The notes beneath the pieces were generated by a model. That model was not told where the DNA came from, searched no databases, and saw only the letters and a program-made list of their open reading frames with translations. A DNA stretch of 64,000 nt, from positions 6,981 to 70,980 of the forward strand of contig DCXN01000003.1 of the NCBI GenBank assembly GCA_002327685.1, read 5' to 3'. The position numbers were made by a program, and so were the translations under genes. The stretch comes from Patescibacteria group bacterium UBA2135. GTDB lineage: Bacteria > Patescibacteriota > Minisyncoccia > Phycocordibacterales > UBA2135. Within the stretch, counting starts at the first letter, position 1, and every line of letters starts with the position of its first letter. Shown in pieces: positions 2,776 through 52,090 of this stretch.

Positions 2776-3240
2776 TCAAGCAACGGAAGCGTCGTTTTCT
2801 TGTTGAATTTTTTCGGCCAAAATGGCGCGCACTCCTTCGGGCTCCTGCATAAATTGCTTGAAAAGCTCATCCGCCGCTTGTCTATGTTGATCTTCTTCCG
2901 ATAACTGCTGCATCCTGGTTCGCTTCAGAGAGTCGTCAATAGACTGCAGCACTTCAATCAACGGCGTTCTGAGCTTAGCTCTCGGAACATCTTTCGCGTC
3001 CACGCCAAGAGCTTTGAGCATCCAGCGCAAGTTGAGCTGATGTCCACGATAACGCATTTCAGAGATTGTCTGAGACACGAAAAACATTCCGCTGAATGGT
3101 CCATCTCCTCCAGTATCCTCAATAATCTTATTACACAAAGCAATGCATTCATCACAGATATGCACTGCCGGACCAGCAATGAGCTTATGGACTTCATGCT
3201 GACTTTTACCGCAGAATGAACAATCTAAGGCTTTAGGCAT
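2776..3240 (-). CDS. Standalone ClpX-type zinc-binding (ZB) domain protein
   Basis: N-terminus [40 protein letters not shown] closely matches the ClpX N-terminal C4 zinc-finger, but there is no AAA+ domain (155 aa). Start adjusted to ATG 3238-3240, which has an AGGGAG RBS 8 nt upstream. Confidence 0.6.
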
Positions 3241-3357: not shown

Positions 3358-3426
3358 CCGCCGCAAGGCCCGGCCTTACATGGGGATAACCTGTGCATAA
3401 ACCACCCCGCAAGGCCGGGCCTTGCG
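3358..3426. repeat. REP-like element, family 1 (copy 3)
   Basis: CCGCCGCAAGGCCCGGCCTTACATGGGGATAACCTGTGCATAAACCACCCCGCAAGGCCGGGCCTTGCG. Confidence 0.8.
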
Positions 3427-3499
3427 TAAGCTCCTCGCATGCCACACACAAAAAGCCCCTACAAAAGGGACTTTCCGCTCAAACCACTCAAAAAAACAA

Positions 3500-4036: not shown

Positions 4037-4558
4037 TTAATTCTTCGCCTCCGCGACCTGGTGCAACACACTCACAAACGACTGCGTCATCCCATTTAAC
4101 ACCTGAACAGTCTGCTGAACAGGCGCGTTTATAACCATAACAAATTGCCCAAGAAGAACTTCTCGAGAAGGTATCTTCGCAAGAGCAACAACCTCTTCTT
4201 TCCTCAAATACCTTTTTTCAAGAATACCACCCACAGCCGATACCGCATTTTCAAATTTCTTCTGAAATTCCGCGATACCCTTTGCCGGCAAAACCATATC
4301 CTCACCATAAGCAAGCGCAATTTCTCCCTCAAGCTCCGGCAAATCCCCTTCCATCTCAGCATCTTGAAGTACTCGCTTAAGCAATGTTTTCTTCACTACA
4401 ACATACGAAACCCCCTCCTTACGAAGCGCGCTCCGCATTTCACTTGCGTCAGTTACAGACAACCCATGAAAATTAACAAACACAACAGAGTTCGCATTCT
4501 CCACTACATCAGCAGCCTGTTTGACGATTTCTTCTTTTTTCTGTTTTGTTAAAGCCAT
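4037..4558 (-). CDS. rplJ: 50S ribosomal protein L10
   Basis: MALTKQKKEEIVK...VVFVNFHGLSV...LKR signature of L10. Immediately upstream of rplL. Confidence 0.9.
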   Translation of the reverse strand: MALTKQKKEEIVKQAADVVENANSVVFVNFHGLSVTDASEMRSALRKEGVSYVVVKKTLLKRVLQDAEMEGDLPELEGEIALAYGEDMVLPAKGIAEFQKKFENAVSAVGGILEKRYLRKEEVVALAKIPSREVLLGQFVMVINAPVQQTVQVLNGMTQSFVSVLHQVAEAKN

Positions 4559-4586
4559 GATAGATTTTTAACGAGCGCAGCGAGTA

Positions 4587-4900
4587 TAAAAATCATCACC
4601 CCCTCACTCGAAAATTAATTGGAAATGCTTCTTTTTATTCTCCTCTTTAAACTAATAAGAGCCCCCGCTCTTCGCTTAATTTGCCGTTCTCTTTCACGAG
4701 CATCCTGTTCTGATTTATACGCTTCATAATACACAACATCAAATGGCTTTCTATTTTCTGTTGATGACACATTTCCATTATTATGTTCTTTCACTCTTTT
4801 CTGTAAATCACTGGTATATCCAAAATATAAATCTTTATCTTTCAATGATTGTAATGTGTAGAAAAAGAACATAATAATTAATTTTCGAGTGATGGGGGTT
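4587..4900. mobile_element. Small element bounded by 24-bp terminal inverted repeats and carrying a GIY-YIG nuclease gene
   Basis: Left end CACCCCCTCACTCGAAAATTAATT (4587-4610). Right end AATTAATTTTCGAGTGATGGGGGTT (4876-4900). The same inverted repeats bound the non-coding element at 26880-27034. Confidence 0.55.
4615..4872 (-). CDS. GIY-YIG nuclease superfamily protein
   Basis: FFFYTLQSLKDKDLYFGYTSDLQKRVKEHN matches the GIY-x10-YIG...R...E...N pattern. 85 aa. Confidence 0.7.
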   Translation of the reverse strand: MFFFYTLQSLKDKDLYFGYTSDLQKRVKEHNNGNVSSTENRKPFDVVYYEAYKSEQDARERERQIKRRAGALISLKRRIKRSISN

Positions 4901-7272: not shown

Positions 7273-7341
7273 CGCCGCAAGGCCCGGCCTTACATGGGGA
7301 TAACTTGTTGATAAACTGCCCCGTAAGGCCGGGCCTTGCGG
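7273..7341. repeat. REP-like element, family 1 (copy 5)
   Basis: CCGCCGCAAGGCCCGGCCTTACATGGGGATAACTTGTTGATAAACTGCCCCGTAAGGCCGGGCCTTGCGG. Confidence 0.8.
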
Positions 7342-7378
7342 AAACAAAAACACGACCGAACCTTTTGGGTTCGATCGT
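7342..7378 (-). terminator. Rho-independent terminator for the 7401-7823 gene
   Basis: ACGACCGAACC-TTTT-GGGTTCGATCGT hairpin with a T-run on the minus strand. Confidence 0.55.
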
Positions 7379-7955: not shown

Positions 7956-8024
7956 CGCCGCAAGGCCCGGCCTTACATGGGGATAAGTTGTTGATAACCC
8001 ACCCCGCAAGGCCGGGCCTTGCGG
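7956..8024. repeat. REP-like element, family 1 (copy 6)
   Basis: CGCCGCAAGGCCCGGCCTTACATGGGGATAAGTTGTTGATAACCCACCCCGCAAGGCCGGGCCTTGCGG. Confidence 0.8.
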
Positions 8025-8079
8025 CATACCCAACCTTTCCCCCCCCACACAACACTGCTCTTACCTAACCACAGCCCAC

Positions 8080-10395: not shown

Positions 10396-10575
10396 CGAAC
10401 GGGAAAGGTCTGACCTTGAGGAAAAAACTGTGTCGCCAGGTCTGGCCTTGAGGAGGAGCGGAGCGACGGGAGAAGACCAGACCTTGCGGTACAGTTTTTG
10501 GGAAAAGGTCGGACCTCGCGGAGTCCATTTGCCGAACTGAGGAGTTTCAGCCCGAGACTGATCCGCCTCAGGCGG
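10396..10575. repeat. Family-2 GC-rich repeat array
   Basis: Units such as GGTCTGACCTTGAGG / CCAGGTCTGGCCTTGAGGAGGAGCGGAGCGACGGGAGAAG / ACCAGACCTTGCGG / GGTCGGACCTCGCGG. The core resembles the family-1 arm (CCGCAAGGYCCGGCCTT). Confidence 0.75.
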
Positions 10576-14129: not shown

Positions 14130-14199
14130 CCGCCGCAAGGCCCGGCCTTACATGGGGATAAGCTGTTGATAAACTACTCCATAAGGCCGGGCCTTGCGG
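14130..14199. repeat. REP-like element, family 1 (copy 7)
   Basis: CCGCCGCAAGGCCCGGCCTTACATGGGGATAAGCTGTTGATAAACTACTCCATAAGGCCGGGCCTTGCGG. Confidence 0.8.
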
Positions 14200-14285
14200 A
14201 CAAATGAATTTTTACCAAAACAAAAAAGACCGCCCCCTCGCATACGAAGCGAGGGTTTGGTCTCTCGTTTCGCCGAAGTGGCGGT

Positions 14286-16957: not shown

Positions 16958-17031
16958 CCCCCGCAAGGCCCGGCCTTGCAAGTTATCCACAGGTTATCCC
17001 CCAAAAACCTCTCTCAAGGCCGGGCCTTGCA
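16958..17031. repeat. REP-like element, family 1, inverted variant (copy 9)
   Basis: CCCCGCAAGGCCCGGCCTTGCAAGTTATCCACAGGTTATCCCC...CAAGGCCGGGCCTTGC. The central part is the reverse complement of GGGGATAACCTGTGGATAA. Confidence 0.7.
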
Positions 17032-17116
17032 GAAAATCATCCACTCAAAAACCGCCTCACTTATTAGCAAGGCGGTTTTTAATGATTTGCTTTATCTTCG
17101 TATTAGCTTCTTTTCT

Positions 17117-26879: not shown

Positions 26880-27034
26880 CCCCCCTCACTCGAAAAATTA
26901 TTGACGACGTAGAGCGAGGTAAATGGACGGGAAAGGTCTGACCTTGAGGAGGAGCGAAGCGACGGGAGAAGGTCGGACCTTGCGGAGTCCATTTGCCGAG
27001 CCGAGGAGTTAGTAACTTTTCGAGTGAGGGGGTG
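26880..27034. mobile_element. Non-coding MITE-like element with the same inverted repeats as the GIY-YIG element, carrying a family-2 repeat core
   Basis: Inverted repeats CCCCCTCACTCGAAAA (26881-26896) and TTTTCGAGTGAGGGGG (27017-27032) enclose GACGGGAAAGGTCTGACCTTGAGGAGGAGCGAAGCGACGGGAGAAGGTCGGACCTTGCGGAGTCCATTTGCCGAGCCGAGGAG. Confidence 0.55.
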
Positions 27035-30942: not shown

Positions 30943-31070
30943 AGCCAGGTCTAGCCTTGAGGAAAAAACTGTACGGCCAGGTCTGACCTTGAGGAGGAGC
31001 GGAGCAACGGGAGAAGGTCGGACCTTGCGGTATAGTTTTCGGAAGAAGACCAGACCTTACGGACCTTGTC
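30943..31070. repeat. Family-2 GC-rich repeat array
   Basis: CCAGGTCTAGCCTTGAGGAAAAAACTGTACGGCCAGGTCTGACCTTGAGGAGGAGCGGAGCAACGGGAGAAGGTCGGACCTTGCGG...GACCAGACCTTACGGACCTTG. Confidence 0.75.
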
Positions 31071-45882: not shown

Positions 45883-47808
45883 CTCGTCTTTAGGCAACAC
45901 TACCTTCCCCTGACTAAAAATAAAGTTCGGGTCAGTGCTAAGCGAAGTATCAAGCGCCTTACTTGAAAGACGCGCGACTGTCTCTGTAAACTCATCAACT
46001 CCTGAAAACGTTGACTCACCAATTACCGTCGGAGTCTGGTTGAGATGCGACAAGCTTGGCATAAGTTTTACCTGAAATGCAACCTCTCGCGGCGGCAATG
46101 TCATACCCGACCCCGCCTCAAGCCGATCAATGTTCCATACCACTTCGCGAGACGATTCATTGTATGAAATATTTTCACTCATTGGCGTAAAAACTCCCAC
46201 CCATTTAACATAAGGAGGTAAAACTGCTTTGACCATTGAGCGAGAGACATGATTTGACGAATTAACAGCCGTAAAAACAACTGTGTATGTTGTTTCGCGC
46301 TCAACTTCCGGCGGTACAGGACCTGTGTTTATAAACGGTCCAACAAAATATACCATACGAGACGTAAATACAACATCAGAGGCAATTTTAATCGTACGCT
46401 CAATTGAATTTTCAACTCGCTCATCAACGCCTGACTCCGAAAGTCGCTTACCACTTGTAGTTACAACAATATCAACAGTTGGATTTTTAAATAGTGAACC
46501 GCTTGTGGTAAAAAGCGGCTGCAACGCAAACCGAAAACTTGTTCTTCCCTGCGCGCCAGACTCAATGTCCGCAAGATCCGGCAGTGAATTCTTATCCCAC
46601 AAAATCGTGTTATCAGCTGAATCAAAGAATCCATTACGCGGCTTCACTGAAAGTTCATTAATAACATCACCTGAAAGCTTTGCTTCAATGCGCGCGTCAA
46701 CAATTTTGGTCGGCAAGTTATTTGTCCATACGACCTCAACGTCAACAAGCGAGCCGCTTCCCACAGCTGGTTCTTTTCTTGTTTCTCCATTGACAAACAA
46801 AAGCGTACTCAAGAAAGGGCGCGCAATTGAAATAGTAGATATTGATGTATTGTATGTAACCCCGAGTTCATTTTCTTTCTCTTTGGATTTAGCGCCGCTT
46901 GAAACCCGGAATACTTTCTCTTCCCCATCTTGCCCTTCAAGAATTCCGCGAACAACAATCACGCGCCGTGCCCGCGGCGCCAAATCACCAATAAGCCATT
47001 TGTTATCGCCAGATACGGCCTGCGGCTCAGCCCCAAGAAATGAAAAACCAAACGGATAGTCTATCTCGACAGCAAGATCACGAGTTATTATGTCGGTATT
47101 TGATATGACTGTAGCTTTAATTTCAAATTCCTGCCCTGCCACCGCTTCAGAAAGTGTCTCTACGGTAAGGCTGGTAGCAGAAGAGCTGATATGTATTTCA
47201 TGTTCTTTTTCTTTTACAAAAATGGCATTAGAATCTTCTACTCTATACTCAAGTGTAATATTAAATTTCTTTTCATCTCCTTCTTGTCCAAACAATACAA
47301 GCCGCAAAGGTTCTTCAATAACCTCCCCTGCTTCAATACGATCAAGCGATTTACGAAAGTTGGAAAGTTCTGTTTTAAGTTTGCCAACACTTCTTGTTCC
47401 TTGCGGATATTCAACCAAAAAATCAACAAATTCAAGAGGGACACTATTGTTATTTTCAATTACAATTTGGAGTTGCACTTCTTCACCCGCGGGCGCCGCA
47501 ACAGGGCCTGAAACAAGAATGTCCACATTTTTTGTGGAGATAACATTAGAATCACGCAGCAAAACAAATGAAGCAACAATCATCGCAAGAACAAAAAAGA
47601 GTATTGAGATAATGAAAAATTTTTTCCAGAATGGCATGATTGGTTTTTTTGCGTCCGCAGGATCCGCTTCTTCGGCTTCCCACCCGCTTTCACCCTCCCC
47701 GTCATGTGTATGAAGCTCAAAGCGTTCACTTGGAGGCAAATTCGCGCCACGCCTATACAAAGACTTTTTAAGCCGCTCTATCTTCCCCTCTTTTTTCACC
47801 TTAGACAT
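45880..47808 (-). CDS. Membrane-anchored large hypothetical protein with repeated beta-rich domains
   Basis: 642 aa. N-terminal transmembrane segment after a charged cytoplasmic head. Extracellular Ig-like repeats. Confidence 0.6.
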   Translation of the reverse strand: MSKVKKEGKIERLKKSLYRRGANLPPSERFELHTHDGEGESGWEAEEADPADAKKPIMPFWKKFFIISILFFVLAMIVASFVLLRDSNVISTKNVDILVSGPVAAPAGEEVQLQIVIENNNSVPLEFVDFLVEYPQGTRSVGKLKTELSNFRKSLDRIEAGEVIEEPLRLVLFGQEGDEKKFNITLEYRVEDSNAIFVKEKEHEIHISSSATSLTVETLSEAVAGQEFEIKATVISNTDIITRDLAVEIDYPFGFSFLGAEPQAVSGDNKWLIGDLAPRARRVIVVRGILEGQDGEEKVFRVSSGAKSKEKENELGVTYNTSISTISIARPFLSTLLFVNGETRKEPAVGSGSLVDVEVVWTNNLPTKIVDARIEAKLSGDVINELSVKPRNGFFDSADNTILWDKNSLPDLADIESGAQGRTSFRFALQPLFTTSGSLFKNPTVDIVVTTSGKRLSESGVDERVENSIERTIKIASDVVFTSRMVYFVGPFINTGPVPPEVERETTYTVVFTAVNSSNHVSRSMVKAVLPPYVKWVGVFTPMSENISYNESSREVVWNIDRLEAGSGMTLPPREVAFQVKLMPSLSHLNQTPTVIGESTFSGVDEFTETVARLSSKALDTSLSTDPNFIFSQGKVVLPKDE

Positions 47809-47862
47809 TACACTTCATTATAGCATTGAATAAGCAAGGTACTAGGTTTTAAGCTAATCGCG

Positions 47863-48053
47863 CCGCCAGGTCTGGCCTTGAGGAGGAGCGGAGCCGAGTC
47901 TGACTCGGCGCAGCGACGGGAAAAGGCCGGACCTTGCGGAACGGTTTTTTCTAATTTGCAGACCTTGAGAAAAAAACTGTGCAGCCAGGTCTGGCCTTGA
48001 GGAGGAGCGAAGCGACGGGAAAAGGCCGGACCTTGCGGAACAGTTTTCCGCAG
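47863..48053. repeat. Family-2 GC-rich repeat array (two large units)
   Basis: CCAGGTCTGGCCTTGAGGAGGAGCG(G/A)AGC...GACGGGAAAAGGCCGGACCTTGCGGAAC(G/A)GTTTT x2, one unit with an inserted CCGAGTCTGACTCGG hairpin. Confidence 0.8.
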
Positions 48054-48150
48054 TTTCCCCCCATTCCATCAGAACCTTGCAAGGTTTTGATAGAATGTTA
48101 ACAATTTAGGCAAAATTCCCCTCAATTTTATATGAATACAGCAATTTTTA

Positions 48151-48190
48151 AACTATTTCAGTTTATCAAAATGAAGGTTCCTCGTGCGCA
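48151..48190. repeat. 36-40-bp direct repeat abutting a stop codon (copy 1)
   Basis: AACTATTTCAGTTTATCAAAATGAAGGTTCCTCGTGCGCA. Copy 2 is at 49075-49113. Confidence 0.6.
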
Positions 48191-48844
48191 TTAGTTCTCT
48201 AAATCAACAACAGTAATATCAGAAAAAACCTCTTGCAATACACGTAATCGTTCTGATGATTCTGTTTGTGACTTCTTTGAAAATTCTTTAATACTGTTTT
48301 CAATGTCATTTGTCATCTCTCCTGTTTTTTTAAATTTTTCTAATTCTCCATTTGGTAACATTGGCCAAAAATCTTTTGGTAAGCCACTCGTACCCTTTCT
48401 AACTCCTCCAATAAATCTCTTGTAGATACGGGATGTATATTTTTCTATTGGTGTGGGGTGAATGTATATAAATTCAAAATCAGACAACGTATCTGAAAAA
48501 ATACTTTTTAATGTATGTGGGTTTGCCATTGAACCTTCCACTACAACATTACCTCGCAATATAGCTTTTCGTAACTCTTGTTGAGCACCGGTAATAAAAG
48601 CTTCTCTCCATTCTGATGGTTCACCAAAACGATATGCCACAACATAAGCTTTAGGAACATCATCTACACCAAATTTTTCAACAACATTTTTTTGTACAAT
48701 TTGATCAAATGAAATCGATACATACCCAAGATCCTCTACTAGTTGATGAGCGAATGTTGTTTTTCCTGTTGAGGTTTTACCACTGATATATACAATCTGT
48801 GGTTTTGTGTTTTTAATCTTCTTATATACTCCCTCAAGATTCAT
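48191..48844 (-). CDS. P-loop NTPase / nucleoside(-tide) kinase-like protein
   Basis: Walker A IVYISGKTSTGKTTFAHQL. 217 aa. Confidence 0.55.
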   Translation of the reverse strand: MNLEGVYKKIKNTKPQIVYISGKTSTGKTTFAHQLVEDLGYVSISFDQIVQKNVVEKFGVDDVPKAYVVAYRFGEPSEWREAFITGAQQELRKAILRGNVVVEGSMANPHTLKSIFSDTLSDFEFIYIHPTPIEKYTSRIYKRFIGGVRKGTSGLPKDFWPMLPNGELEKFKKTGEMTNDIENSIKEFSKKSQTESSERLRVLQEVFSDITVVDLEN

Positions 48845-48909
48845 AAAATTATTATAACGCTGAATACTTAATATATTGAATAAATATAGTACCTCGTGCT
48901 AGCTCTAAG

Positions 48910-48995
48910 ATGCGGAGACTGAGGGATTCGAACTGTCTCGGTCACCCCGATACTAAATGTTAAGTGCGGGGTGTTAGGGATTCGAACACTTCTCG
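48910..48995. other. tRNA-like T-loop motifs (GGGATTCGAAC x2) that do not fold into a canonical cloverleaf
   Basis: Two GGGATTCGAAC motifs 52 nt apart plus a 7-bp stem CACCCCG...CGGGGTG. Manual folding on either strand failed to give T-stem pairing. Possibly a degraded tRNA or att remnant. Confidence 0.2.
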
Positions 48996-49074
48996 TGCGT
49001 AATCACTACGCTCAAATTGCCTAACCTCCTCAAGCTAAAACTTTTGTCGATCAAGCCCCGTAAAGTTTATTTTT

Positions 49075-49113
49075 AACTATTTTAATTTATCAAAATGAAG
49101 GTCCTCGTGTACC
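49075..49113. repeat. 36-40-bp direct repeat abutting a stop codon (copy 2)
   Basis: AACTATTTTAATTTATCAAAATGAAGGTCCTCGTGTACC. Confidence 0.6.
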
Positions 49114-49824
49114 TTAATTTTTAACATCATATTTTAAATGAAGATAGGAATGTTCTAATTGTTTGCAAGATACTAATGTAAGTGGTCTCAACTTCATCAA
49201 CTCGAAGTTATTATGTAATGACTCACCATCAATAAGTGTTGCTGTATTCTTTCCTCCGACTAAAATTGGTGCAACAACAATGGAAAGATGGTCAATCAAT
49301 CCAGCTCTTAACAAAACGGAGTTTAGTGTTCCTCCAGATTGAATTGTGAGCTTGTCAGCCCCATTCTTTTTTAACTTATAGAGTACATCTTGAAAATCAA
49401 TTTCATTATTATATAAAAGAAAAGTAATCTTATCATTCTGACCTGAAAGAATTTTTGCAGGATGATTAGCGTTTGTACTTACAACAAACACGCCTCTAGT
49501 TTTTTCAGCCAAGTATTCAATCCCTTCAGAAGTTAGGTGTGGCTTATTATCAACTACCACGAATGAAACAGGAATACCATCTTGAAATACCTTTTTCTCA
49601 TTTACTCCAATTTTTTCAAAAACTCTACCCGAGTTAAGCGAAAAAGGATCCGTAGTCTGTTCAATATCATAGTATTGTTTCAATCCTTCTTTTACCCCAT
49701 CAACATTAAGGAAATCCTTATCGACATCCATTGCGTCGGTATCTCCAGTCGATATTTTCCCATCGACAGACATAAGCATGAATAGTGTTGTTTCTGGTCT
49801 TTCCATATATTTATCATAACGCAA
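49114..49824 (-). CDS. RibD C-terminal domain / dihydrofolate-reductase-like reductase
   Basis: TLFMLMSVDGKISTGD...VVVDNKPH...IVVAPILVGGKNT. Confidence 0.6.
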   Translation of the reverse strand: MRYDKYMERPETTLFMLMSVDGKISTGDTDAMDVDKDFLNVDGVKEGLKQYYDIEQTTDPFSLNSGRVFEKIGVNEKKVFQDGIPVSFVVVDNKPHLTSEGIEYLAEKTRGVFVVSTNANHPAKILSGQNDKITFLLYNNEIDFQDVLYKLKKNGADKLTIQSGGTLNSVLLRAGLIDHLSIVVAPILVGGKNTATLIDGESLHNNFELMKLRPLTLVSCKQLEHSYLHLKYDVKN

Positions 49825-49894
49825 TCAATAAAATTGCATAACAAATTGCCTACAGATAAATGTGAATAATCGCCATTAATTTTCTGATATTTTT

Positions 49895-51361
49895 TTATTC
49901 CTCTCGCAACTTATCCAACTCAAGAGTTTCGTCTATGCGAATCTGATTTACAAAATCCGAAACGTGAGAAACAAGCACCATGGCCCCTTTATATTGATCT
50001 AGCGCCTTTGCGATGATGGGTAGATGGCGAAAGTTTATATGATTAGTAGGTTCGTCTAAAATAAGCAGGTTCGGTCTCATAAGTGCAAGTTGTGCAAATG
50101 ACACGAGTCCTTTTTGTCCTTCGGACAAATTTCCTATCTTTGTGTATATAAGCTCTCCTGTTATCAAAAATCCTGCCGCCAAACTCCTCATCATCTGTTC
50201 ATCCTCTCTGTCCATTGCCTTCTTCAGCGTGTCATACACAGTCTCATCAAAATCAAGCATGGAAAAATCCTGTCTATAATAGCCCACTCTCACACCATCT
50301 GAAATCTTTGCACCCTGCTCTGTGCCATGCGCCAAATTATTAAGCAAAGTACTTTTTCCTATGCCATTTGGGCCAGTTAAAAGAAGATGCCTATTTTTCG
50401 TTAAAGATACGTCCGCCACTCTAGAAGACAACTTATCGCCTTGCATAATAGAGAGTGCGTGAATCCGCAAAATCTCGCCTACGTGATGCTCCTTAACGTC
50501 TATATCAAATTTTCGTATAGTTTTGTCTTCACGACGCACATCCACTTTGGATTCTTCCGCCTCTTGCGCACTTTCACGCATACGTTTTGCCAAGATCCTC
50601 ATGCGACCTCCTTTGTTTGCGAAAAAGTTTGCCTTGTCTTTTTTCTCTTGAATATGTTTTTCAAATTGAGCGTTTTTTCTACGTTCTTTTTCTACACGAG
50701 CTACTATCTCCTTAACCACGTCTTTGTAGTCACCAACATATTTTTCTATTTTTCTCGTAAAGACATCTAGATACAAAACGCCTTCCGTGAAAGCATTTAA
50801 AAAATCTGCATCATGAGAAATCACGATAACCGTTTTTTTGTAATCAATCAAAAACTTTTTCAAATGTGAAATCCCATCTTTATCTAGATTGTTTGTGGGT
50901 TCATCTAAGAGCAATATGTCAGGGTTCTGTATTAAAGCAGATGCCAAAAGAAGGCGCGCCTGCTGTCCTCCAGAGAAATCTTTTATGAGCTTTTCCTTTG
51001 GGGCGTGTAGGTTTACGACTTCTAAAATCTTATCTATACGCACATCAATGTTATATATTTTCTCCGTGAAGCACTCTTGAAAAAACTCACGCACAGAAAT
51101 TTCAAGCTGGTCACGTGGTATTACCTGTCTAGCTATCGCCACGGAAAGATTCGGCGCGAAATGAATATCCCCTTCTGCAGGCGTACGCTTTTTTGTGATT
51201 AGCTCAAACAAAGTGCTTTTCCCTGATCCATTTTGCCCCATGAGAGTTATTTTTGAGCCACGACGCACAGTAAAGCTCACCTCATCTAATATGGGTTTCT
51301 TTGCGCTGTATTCAAATGACACCTCGTCAAATCTTATTATTACTTCTGTTTTTTCTGACAT
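49895..51361 (-). CDS. ABC-F family ATPase (tandem ABC domains, no transmembrane domain)
   Basis: Two Walker A motifs (GQNGSGKST; GPNGIGKST), two signature motifs (FSGGQQAR; LSEGQKG), and a charged interdomain linker. Confidence 0.85.
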   Translation of the reverse strand: MSEKTEVIIRFDEVSFEYSAKKPILDEVSFTVRRGSKITLMGQNGSGKSTLFELITKKRTPAEGDIHFAPNLSVAIARQVIPRDQLEISVREFFQECFTEKIYNIDVRIDKILEVVNLHAPKEKLIKDFSGGQQARLLLASALIQNPDILLLDEPTNNLDKDGISHLKKFLIDYKKTVIVISHDADFLNAFTEGVLYLDVFTRKIEKYVGDYKDVVKEIVARVEKERRKNAQFEKHIQEKKDKANFFANKGGRMRILAKRMRESAQEAEESKVDVRREDKTIRKFDIDVKEHHVGEILRIHALSIMQGDKLSSRVADVSLTKNRHLLLTGPNGIGKSTLLNNLAHGTEQGAKISDGVRVGYYRQDFSMLDFDETVYDTLKKAMDREDEQMMRSLAAGFLITGELIYTKIGNLSEGQKGLVSFAQLALMRPNLLILDEPTNHINFRHLPIIAKALDQYKGAMVLVSHVSDFVNQIRIDETLELDKLREE

Positions 51362-51371
51362 AGTTAGCAAA

Positions 51372-52090
51372 GCATTTTAATCAATTTAATCAAAAAGAAC
51401 GCACGCGGTGCGTCCTTGCTCCTTGTTGACAGAACTATACTACAAATCCACTACCTACGCAATCATCTTTTTGAAACGCCGTCAGGTCTGGCCTTCCCGC
51501 CTGCCATCGCCCGACTGACCTTTGCGGACGATTAGGCAGTGGCGGGCAGGGAGGAGGAGCGGAGCGACGGGCCTCGGTCTCGGATAATTCTATACCAAGC
51601 ACTACAAGGCTTTTCTGACGGCTTTTAGTTTACTGTTTCAATGCTCCTCGGAACAAAGTGTAAATTGCTTATCCTCGTAAAACAAGCTATCCTTAGATTG
51701 GATGCTTGAGCAGTGCCGAGGCTAATACGGCGAGATCAGCACGCTAGCCCGAATACCTCGACAGTACTTTGACCGGCCTTAGCTTCAAAGTTGAGGAACG
51801 TCGTCCGTAACTATAACGGACCTTCGCTTGAGCATCCACTTTCTTCTAGCCATTTCTTTGGAAGTGGTTTTTCTATTATAAGAAGCTCTTCATACTCTGA
51901 TCATACTCTGAACCTACCCCGAACTACCTGACTGCTTAGAACGATGTTGAAACCTGTTTTATTTTATCAAATTAATCACTCGACAAAGATTCAAATGGCA
52001 GATAATGCTCGAATATTTTAATGAACATCGAGCTGTCCACAGAAACAAGAAAGCCGCCTACTTCAAACATAAAGTGACGGCTTATATTAA
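51372..52090. other. About 720-nt ORF-free region (candidate leader or ncRNA) containing a disrupted family-2 repeat
   Basis: No ORF of 60 aa or more in any frame. Mixed GC. Several stems (AACGCAC-GCG-GTGCGT; CCGCCTGCC...GGCAGTGGCGGG). The family-2 core (51481-51584) carries a 50-nt insertion. Confidence 0.35.
51481..51584. repeat. Family-2 repeat, disrupted copy
   Basis: GTCAGGTCTGGCCTTCC-[50-nt insert]-AGGGAGGAGGAGCGGAGCGACGGGCCTCGGTCTCGG. Confidence 0.6.

Follow-up and report, generated by a model that had tools for sequence, protein, structure and literature searches.

A putative tRNA-Ser(GCU)-linked slot for replaceable single-gene units in a marine Parcubacteria/Paceibacterota genome

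The stretch analysed here, called the window, comprises 64,000 nucleotides (nt) of contig DCXN01000003.1 of Patescibacteria group bacterium UBA2135. Its host belongs to a marine Parcubacteria/Paceibacterota population that is present in Tara and other samples. Near 48-49 kb the window harbours two minus-strand genes, encoding a P-loop kinase and a RibD_C (dihydrofolate-reductase-family) protein, and a spacer with remains resembling transfer RNA (tRNA) between them (Table 1). An earlier note, made from the letters of this DNA, had pointed to matching sequences abutting the stop codons of these two unrelated genes. The repeat is real and somewhat longer than described, extending over about 45 nt, and both copies begin 4 nt past the stop codon. 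We refer to it as M, and to a second conserved sequence, located on the other side of the kinase gene, as the A arm. The locus sequence is base-for-base the same in four independent assemblies and is therefore no assembly artefact.

Table 1. Features of the locus and their positions in the window
Feature	Position	Strand	Basis and remarks
M copy 1 (DR1)	48146..48190	-	Right-hand border of the kinase unit; in gene sense TGCG-CACGAGGAACCTTCATTTTGATAAACTGAAATAGTTTAAAAAT, after the TAA stop at 48191-48193
Putative cargo gene 1: P-loop kinase with nucleoside monophosphate (NMP) kinase (adenylate / UMP-CMP kinase) fold, 217 amino acids (aa)	48191..48844	-	Pfam, AlphaFold, Foldseek
Left border of the kinase unit	48845..48915	-	A arm plus promoter-like leader (TATAAT 6 nt before the ATG)
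CACGAGG core, left junction of the kinase unit	48892..48898	-	Other copies at 48180-48186 and 49103-49109 (starts of M1 and M2)
A arm, tRNA-Ser 3' terminus plus trailer, CCGCATCTTAGAGCTAGCACGAGG	48915->48892	-	Homologous to the trailer after intact tRNA-Ser
tRNA-Ser 3' fragment 2, variable arm to 3' end, GGGGTGACCGAGACAGTTCGAATCCCTCAGTCTCCGCA	48911..48948	-	Runs into the A arm; alignment, sequence model
tRNA-Ser 3' fragment 1, GGGGCTTGATCGAC...(~50-nt insert)...GTGTTCGAATCCCTAACACCCCGCA	48965..49059	-	Alignments, shuffle test
Degenerate core copy CACGAGA	48991-48997	-	Sequence reading
M copy 2 (DR2)	49070..49113	-	Right-hand border of the RibD_C unit; in gene sense TAA-GGTA-CACGAGGACCTTCATTTTGATAAATTAAAATAGTTAAAAAT
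Putative cargo gene 2: RibD_C / dihydrofolate-reductase family, 230 aa	49114..49806 (alternative TTG start 49824)	-	Pfam E 5.8e-20
Putative promoter/leader of the RibD_C unit	49807..49854	-	Homology with L106 begins at TGTAGG, 48 nt ahead of the ATG (compared by eye)

The repeat search aligned 48146-48178 with 49070-49102 at 91% identity over 33 nt, and the match resumes past a 1-nt indel through CCTCGTG. A degenerate 28-nt core of M has exactly two matches in 64 kb, compared to none in 100 shuffles. Within the window M is restricted to these two copies, but it is also present in three other lineages. Copy 1 matches the sequence after the kinase stop codon of lineage L063 at 95% over 37 nt (35/37; 89% overall), the M of L106 at 17/17 and the M of L118 at 25/27 positions (E 4e-6), and copy 2 matches L063 at 36/41 and L118 at 33/38 positions (E 3e-5). 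Copy 1 is nearer to the copy of L063 than to copy 2 of the window. In four out of five instances M starts at most 4 nt from a stop codon; in L106, for example, GCGCACGAGGAACCTTCGATTT... is found four nt past the stop of the RibD_C gene and corresponds to M.

No palindrome or hairpin was predicted in M (six folds over both strands, z from -0.55 to +1.34), and the search for intrinsic terminators, that is a hairpin plus U tract, gave no terminator-like site in 47700-49900. The divergence between copy 1 and the L063 copy is ~11%, against 17% at four-fold degenerate (4-fold) sites. The five copies of M available are too few for a covariation test. Because M is unstructured and diverges approximately as neutral sequence, we regard it as a boundary or flank sequence and not as an attC hairpin, a terminator or a structured element of the 3' untranslated region (3'-UTR). 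The shared 3'-UTR regulatory element offered in the earlier note is consequently not retained. In a broader form, in which M would be a functional messenger RNA cis-element (regulatory or stability element, terminator, or site for a protein or a small RNA) recruited independently, this explanation would fit the short distance to the stop codons and the retention of M behind three unrelated open reading frames (ORFs). It is improbable given the lack of a stable or shared fold on either strand and of a terminator, the near-neutral divergence, and the presence of only two copies in 64 kb. In addition, every occurrence of M is accompanied by the trailer arm of tRNA-Ser or by relics of this arm, a linkage that an RNA element would not require.

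Several other candidates for the function of M were rejected. Sigma-70-like promoter matches are outnumbered by those in shuffles and do not coincide in position between the two copies, and the frame of a small plus-strand ORF is not conserved (MKVPRAH* and MKVLVYLNF*). A dif/Xer-like reading of GTGCGCATTA applies to copy 1 only. In viral contigs, a 17-mer gave 52 matches with random flanks and the M pattern four chance matches inside coding regions, and the pattern of the A arm gave one chance match. Just downstream of copy 1, at 48062-48097, a near-perfect 36-nt palindrome, CATTCCATCAGAACCTTGCAAGGTTTTGATAGAATG, occupies the place where other lineages have a tRNA fragment.

The left border of the kinase unit is identical to that of L063 at 71/71 positions, where ~12 changes would be expected at the 17% divergence of 4-fold sites. 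Its A arm is shared with L121 (24/24), L118 (23/24) and L106 (22/24), and in these lineages it is located directly after an intact tRNA-Ser. The 3' end and trailer of the L106 tRNA read ...GGTTCGAGTCCTATACCCACCGCATCTAACAGCTAGCACGAGGAAC..., and by BLAST this region matches L063 at 32/36 and the window at 22/24 positions. The sequence CCTCGTG is found on the plus strand of the window only three times (48180, 48892 and 49103), all inside the 930-bp locus; the copy at 48892 confirms the third copy previously noticed in the spacer. Both junctions of each unit bear the same direct repeat of 8-15 nt, GC(TA)GCACGAGGAAC. Alignments of the arms are conserved up to CACGAGG(AA), then diverge according to the cargo gene, and are conserved again from ...G(C/T)(G/A)C(A/T)(C/A)GAGGA. 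The kinase unit of the window possesses the CACGAGG core on both sides and a tRNA fragment on the left side only. Upstream of the RibD_C leader, the window carries the end of an ABC-F gene in place of the tRNA-Ser and A arm of L106.

The same arrangement was found with different genes in other lineages. L063 possesses an 85%-identical homologue of the kinase behind a decayed tRNA-Ser. The block that it shares with the window is sharply bounded, from CCGCA (48915) to the end of M (48146), and the flanks outside are unrelated; the kinase coding sequences are 90% identical at the nucleotide level. L106 harbours an intact tRNA-Ser(GCT) predicted by ARAGORN, the A arm, a RibD_C gene (85% identical), and M 4 nt past its stop. 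L118-L122 possess a helix-turn-helix (HTH)/LAGLIDADG gene, an intact tRNA-Ser(GCT), the A trailer, an ORF for a 133-aa NUDIX hydrolase, and then M. The same A and M arms enclose a kinase (L063 and the window), a RibD_C gene (L106) or a NUDIX gene (L118-L122), and these three unrelated genes are therefore assigned to one slot. This is in agreement with the earlier suggestion that the repeats mark cassette boundaries, since M follows the kinase (L063), RibD_C (L106) and NUDIX (L118) genes, always opposite the tRNA-Ser trailer arm. Fragments of tRNA flank the unit on both sides in L063 and L106, and none is present on the right in L118.

In both lineages with an intact slot, a gene for a 333-aa protein with HTH and LAGLIDADG_3 domains (L106 635-1636; L118 5808-6809) is located immediately upstream of the tRNA-Ser(GCT). 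This protein family comprises 685 homologues at E<=1e-10 and, among the matches listed, the named ones belong to the Candidate Phyla Radiation (CPR)/Patescibacteria.

These features recall integrons, and the earlier note had proposed an att or integron-attC-like role. Integron attC sites are imperfect palindromes of 57-141 nt with R''-L''/L'-R' cores, and fold as hairpins. If the locus were integron-like, it would be an array of cassettes without promoters, with M as an attC-type site that folds when the DNA is single-stranded. Similar to integron cassettes, each unit consists of a single ORF trailed within a few nt by one boundary sequence, and the cargo is interchangeable between genomes at one chromosomal site. 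However, M is not palindromic and forms no hairpin on either strand (z about 0), and neither R''/R' core sites nor a RYYYAAC/GTTRRRY core pair were seen on reading. No IntI-like gene, attI or Pc was found in the 20-kb neighbourhood or, by weak checks, across the window. Each unit also appears to be self-promoted, with its own -10-like leader, and the left border is a tRNA trailer. The attC-like role does not hold for M, and an integron-like array is extremely unlikely.

The spacer contains debris that had been described as tRNA-like, and the pieces can now be assigned to a specific gene. They are two ~40-nt 3' pieces of tRNA-Ser(GCU), reaching from the variable arm to the end. Fragment 2 agrees with the L106 tRNA-Ser at 33/43 positions, ungapped and in register from the T-loop to the CACGAGG trailer (own count). 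Fragment 1 begins like the fragment after M in L063 and L106, ACGGGGCTT.A.CGAC..., and as a whole it is similar to the L106 tRNA-Ser in the shuffle test (z = 2.6, p = 0.019); its 5' part alone is not (p = 0.43), and the signal is carried by the 3' part only. In the same test the L063 fragment after M gave p = 0.025, and the L063 relic upstream of the kinase z = 4.0. A sequence model was built from six fragments, the window fragments among them, and scored fragment 2 at 22.9 bits and 48963-48993 at 16.5 bits, both being training sequences. With this sequence-only model, no copies beyond the training fragments were detected in the window and 13 loci; in the window, fragments are therefore found at this locus only.

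The two GGGATTCGAAC motifs at 48923 and 48977, reported earlier as T-loop-like, are not significant alone, since at least two matches were found in 34/100 shuffles. They are, on the other hand, located inside 23-nt repeats that are 83% identical and homologous to the 3' end of the real tRNA-Ser, and in this respect the earlier observation stands. No valid tRNA had been folded from the spacer, and ARAGORN likewise detected neither a tRNA nor a transfer-messenger RNA (tmRNA) in the whole window. Rfam gave nothing at gathering score, and no tRNA match even at E<=10 in 47700-49300. Of the two findings by which the earlier note would have been refuted, a normal tRNA in the spacer and a motif unique to this locus, neither was obtained.

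We also considered whether the spacer encodes an unusual functional RNA that has M as promoter or leader, such as a split tRNA, a tRNA-like minihelix, or a reduced or permuted tmRNA. Several features would speak for it: GGGGCTTGATCGAC resembles tmRNA 5' ends, tmRNA genes precede the kinase homologues of L065 and L067, the order ...ACACCCCGCA-N17-GGGGTGA... mimics a permuted gene layout, and L063 and L106 agree at 88% in the fragment behind M (own count), above the expected neutral level. The negative results with ARAGORN and Rfam and the absence of smpB from the window count against it. Moreover, L106 has CATA in place of GGGG and a 41-nt insertion that divides its copy, only 3-5 positions can pair in the acceptor and T stems (partly own reading), and in L106 and L118 the intact tRNA-Ser is immediately preceded by a sequence other than M. 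A tmRNA was rejected also because the fragment fits the variable arm to 3' end of tRNA-Ser better, and a permuted or split tRNA (ACACCCCGCA-N17-GGGGTGA) because D and anticodon arms are absent and the helices are poor. A functional RNA in the spacer is therefore very unlikely.

The locus belongs to a part of the genome that differs from related genomes. In the relatives L005 and L006 the gene order is S41 peptidase, (AsnS-like gene), MBL gene and then a 650-aa gene, the MBL gene directly adjoining the 650-aa gene. Between the MBL gene and the corresponding 642-aa gene, the window possesses in addition a 128-aa ORF, ~720 nt of non-coding DNA, and the ABC-F, RibD_C and kinase genes. The GC content of the window reaches its minimum here, 0.34-0.36 in 48-50 kb compared to ~0.42 elsewhere. 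The extra genes and the lowest GC content therefore place the locus within a variable segment of ~4.8 kb.

The order in the window is read as [RibD_C-M]-fragment 1-16 nt-fragment 2-[A-kinase-M], that is, two units of the slot in tandem. M would be duplicated, with debris between its copies, because two units stand in tandem. A simpler origin would be a local tandem duplication of a ~924-bp segment followed by divergence, with no cassette biology involved. The two direct copies are 924 bp apart and no polymorphism was seen, as such an origin would allow. However, the two ORFs are of unrelated folds and families and the segment between the repeats is therefore no duplicate. The same borders flank orthologues of these genes separately in other lineages, as well as a third gene, and copy 1 of M is nearer to the L063 copy than to copy 2. 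A local duplication is thus highly improbable.

Taken together, the locus is probably a tRNA-linked integration or replacement hot spot, in which a slot behind tRNA-Ser(GCU) receives swappable single-gene units; from the sequence comparisons, we give this reading about two chances in three. The left border A would consist of the last tRNA bases plus the conserved trailer CCGCATCTWASAGCTAGCACGAGG, and the right border would be the ~45 nt of M. The unit between them would be compact, with its own promoter-like leader plus a single ORF, and M would abut the stop codons because a unit ends 4-24 nt past its stop codon.

From the homologies, cargos and junction repeats we infer the following mechanism and order of events. 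A and M would once have been contiguous downstream of tRNA-Ser, and the joined A-M would read AGCTAGCACGAGGAACCTTCATTTTGATAAA. Units would enter this empty site at the GCACGAGG(AAC) core, possibly by means of a site-specific recombinase acting in trans. Alternatively, units may have been swapped, after one ancient insertion, by RecA-dependent homologous recombination within the conserved flanks; genes for RecA, ComEC, SSB and RecJ are present in the host. The tRNA-Ser 3' fragments beside some units would be scars of the kind that integration into a tRNA gene commonly leaves. The array of the window would have lost the intact tRNA, the RibD_C unit its A arm and tRNA, and the kinase unit would keep a tRNA fragment only. 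Under this reading as a hot spot, the junction in a kinase-free genome would be RibD_C-M running into ...AAAAATTGCTG, and the circular junction would read ...AACTAATGCGCACGAGGTACTATATTT....

Several observations weigh against this reading. An intact tRNA-Ser is missing from the window and the RibD_C unit has no A arm. The kinase is present on 12/12 contigs bearing this RibD_C gene and, with the locus the same in four assemblies, no present-day mobility is apparent. A search for strain polymorphism of the kinase unit across the available assemblies found none, and the sampled population is fixed for this arrangement (all available assemblies). The arms are carried by only four lineages and, since the kinase unit of the window and that of L063 are of common descent, the independent cargos are three. 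The repeat at the junctions, with 8 nt in the window, is short and could be left over from a single old event. The fragments are diverged, with ~60-80% identity to one another and to the intact tRNA, and L118 has no fragment after M, because of which their role as attachment (att) scars of these units is uncertain. No recombinase gene was found in the units, which have one ORF each, or in the 20 kb around them. Two weaker tests were also negative: no recombinase family is among 25 of the 33 Pfam families listed for the window, and tblastn of the window with approximate XerD and lambda Int sequences as queries gave no match. Neither an empty site, with A joined to M, nor a circular junction was observed.

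A further possibility is a dedicated, non-integron cassette system. Its landing site would be in the tRNA-Ser(GCU) trailer with the core GCTAGCACGAGGAAC, self-promoted cassettes would be inserted, swapped and stacked there, A and M would serve as arm sites, and the recombinase would be encoded elsewhere or be of an unrecognised type. We consider such a system doubtful. Its cargo may consist of nucleotide- or cofactor-related enzymes, such as the NMP-kinase-like, RibD_C and NUDIX proteins.

Repeats of partial tRNAs are documented marks of integration, and tRNA hot spots can harbour tandem or decayed elements (PMC9897764; bioRxiv 10.1101/2020.12.28.424599). Integration hot spots at tRNA genes go back to Reiter 1989 and Williams 2002, as these are cited in PMC9897764. 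The closest known situation is a tRNA-linked island hot spot with tandem and decayed elements split by partial tRNAs, e.g. the tycheposon islands of Prochlorococcus. Similar to these, the locus described here has a site 3' of a tRNA gene, 3' tRNA fragments between or beside units, units in tandem, cargo that varies between related genomes at one site, and a marine streamlined host. In contrast, the present units are tiny (~0.75-1 kb), with one ORF and no integrase or replication module nearby. The A and M borders persist as the cargo changes, the core is in the trailer and not inside the tRNA, and the intact tRNA is gone from this window, though it is present in L106 and L118-L122. Judged as integrative elements, the units are accompanied by partial 3' copies of the tRNA, but these are diverged and not identical repeats.

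The cis-mobilizable elements (CIMEs) of Firmicutes are att-flanked elements that lack recombination genes of their own. They are accreted beside integrative and conjugative elements (ICEs) or integrative and mobilizable elements (IMEs), are several kb in size and originate from the decay of ICEs or IMEs. Like CIMEs, the units lack a recombinase gene and can be stacked in tandem, and they may be bounded by attachment-type repeats. Unlike here, where no helper element was identified, CIMEs are larger and located next to their helper. In replacement-type flexible genomic islands, homologous recombination within conserved flanks exchanges one cargo for another. The present locus resembles them in its conserved left (tRNA plus A) and right (M) flanks with alternative content, in a host with RecA, ComEC, SSB and RecJ. 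It differs in that one gene and not a gene cluster is exchanged, in the ~45-nt right flank, and in the short direct repeats at both junctions.

Regarding the putative cargo genes, the AlphaFold model of the kinase has a pLDDT (predicted local distance difference test) of 90.8, and Foldseek ranks UMP/CMP and adenylate kinases highest among its PDB matches. With 16 clusters, the kinase family is small. Between the window (48191-48844) and L063 (852-1505), the kinase genes differ at 12 first, 20 second and 33 third codon positions. The non-synonymous share is high for 90% nucleotide identity; nonetheless, the 71-nt leader is invariant. The RibD_C protein has thousands of homologues in Patescibacteria, among them the 85%-identical orthologue directly behind tRNA-Ser in L106. 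Homologues at 63-71% identity occupy unrelated contexts, and neither the A nor the M arm was found in the contexts P0019, P0021 and P0023.

The kinase family tends to adjoin tRNA or tmRNA genes. A tmRNA gene (Rfam, 82-106 bits) is located directly upstream of the kinase homologue in L065, L067 and L068, and a tRNA within ~250 nt upstream in 4/37 distant loci. The tmRNA-kinase loci belong to a branch of kinases with ~50% identity (L065 5389-6726, L067 5030-6651, L068 1-1603 and L069 1-813). In L065 and L067 the order is smpB, ssrA and kinase, and these tmRNAs were missed by ARAGORN and found by Rfam; in L069, a sequence like a tmRNA 3' end was seen by eye only. L067 also possesses a 28-nt duplicate of the tmRNA 3' end ~190 nt past ssrA, followed by a frameshifted XRE-type HTH gene, resembling an att scar. 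A second motif near the ~50%-identity kinases (downstream in L065, upstream in L067; 85% over 34 nt) has no significant similarity to M (p 0.04-0.98) and was rejected.

Within the variable segment, the 720-nt stretch between the ABC-F gene and the 128-aa ORF (51371-52090) is without a credible ORF. A decayed integrase was considered there and rejected, as no long ORF remnants and no Rfam match were found. The plus strand of 51600-51900, especially 51699-51839, folds as a three-way junction with a 13-bp closing stem (z = -2.3) and has no Rfam match, and a third G+C-rich hairpin is predicted at ~51480-51580.

Two further repeat families were found in the window. An intergenic repeat of ~70 nt, CGCAAGGCCCGGCCTTAC-ATGGGGATAACCTGTTGATAAACTACCCCG-CAAGGCCGGGCCTTGCG, occurs in six copies, all in the first 17 kb (233-305, 3360-3430, 7275-7344, 7958-8027, 14133-14202 and 16960-17035), compared to 0.01 expected. 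It consists of G+C-rich inverted arms around two DnaA-box-like 9-mers (TTATCAACA, and TTATCCCCA on the other strand); the copy at 17 kb contains a perfect TTATCCACA. The second, also G+C-rich, family (10436-10492, 26932-26988, 30977-31033, 47862-47948 and 47973-48047) has runs of A and T on either side of a long hairpin, AAAACTGT..GCCAGGTCTGGCCTT-GAGGAGGAGCGGAGCGACGGGAG-AAGGCCAGACCTTGCGG.ACAGTTTT. A tandem pair occupies the DNA between the kinase unit and the 642-aa gene, and L063 has a related copy behind its kinase unit. From its sequence, this family looks like a bidirectional terminator-type element or a REP (repetitive extragenic palindromic)-like element.

Similar elements were also seen in related genomes. 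In L108, a further Parcubacteria contig whose RibD_C protein is 63% identical, a ~67-nt repeat composed of AACAGGTTCGAACGTCGTCCACTAGACGGAGCA plus a terminator hairpin is present right after the stops of at least four successive genes (1259-1325, 2397-2463, 3022-3088, 4493-4594, ~121 and ~5818). Boundary elements of this T-loop-like type, placed behind stop codons, may be a more general trait of such genomes. In addition, a small insertion unit that starts with ACCACAAGRGCACTTCTT and ends with AAAGTCGC was found right after GGTTC in T-loop-like sequences of L106 (2607-2647) and L108 (3087-3146 and 4506-4566). It is also present in L118 (2180-2198), there ~70 nt downstream of a tRNA-Ile gene, and may be a miniature element targeting T-loop-like sites.

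Almost nothing is known about gene exchange in the tiny, host-dependent CPR/Patescibacteria. The locus described here would be a tangible case of a hot spot defined at the sequence level, with sharp borders and three alternative cargo genes. The pattern of its arms, CCGCATYTWASAGCTAGCACGAGG for A and CACGAGGAMCYTTMATTTTRATAAA for M, is a handle to search the phylum for accessory genes and for the responsible recombinase, and lone T-loop-like scraps in such genomes may help to recognise sites of past integration. Should there be no dedicated recombinase, the locus would illustrate how single genes can be swapped through recombination within flanks of ~45-100 nt.

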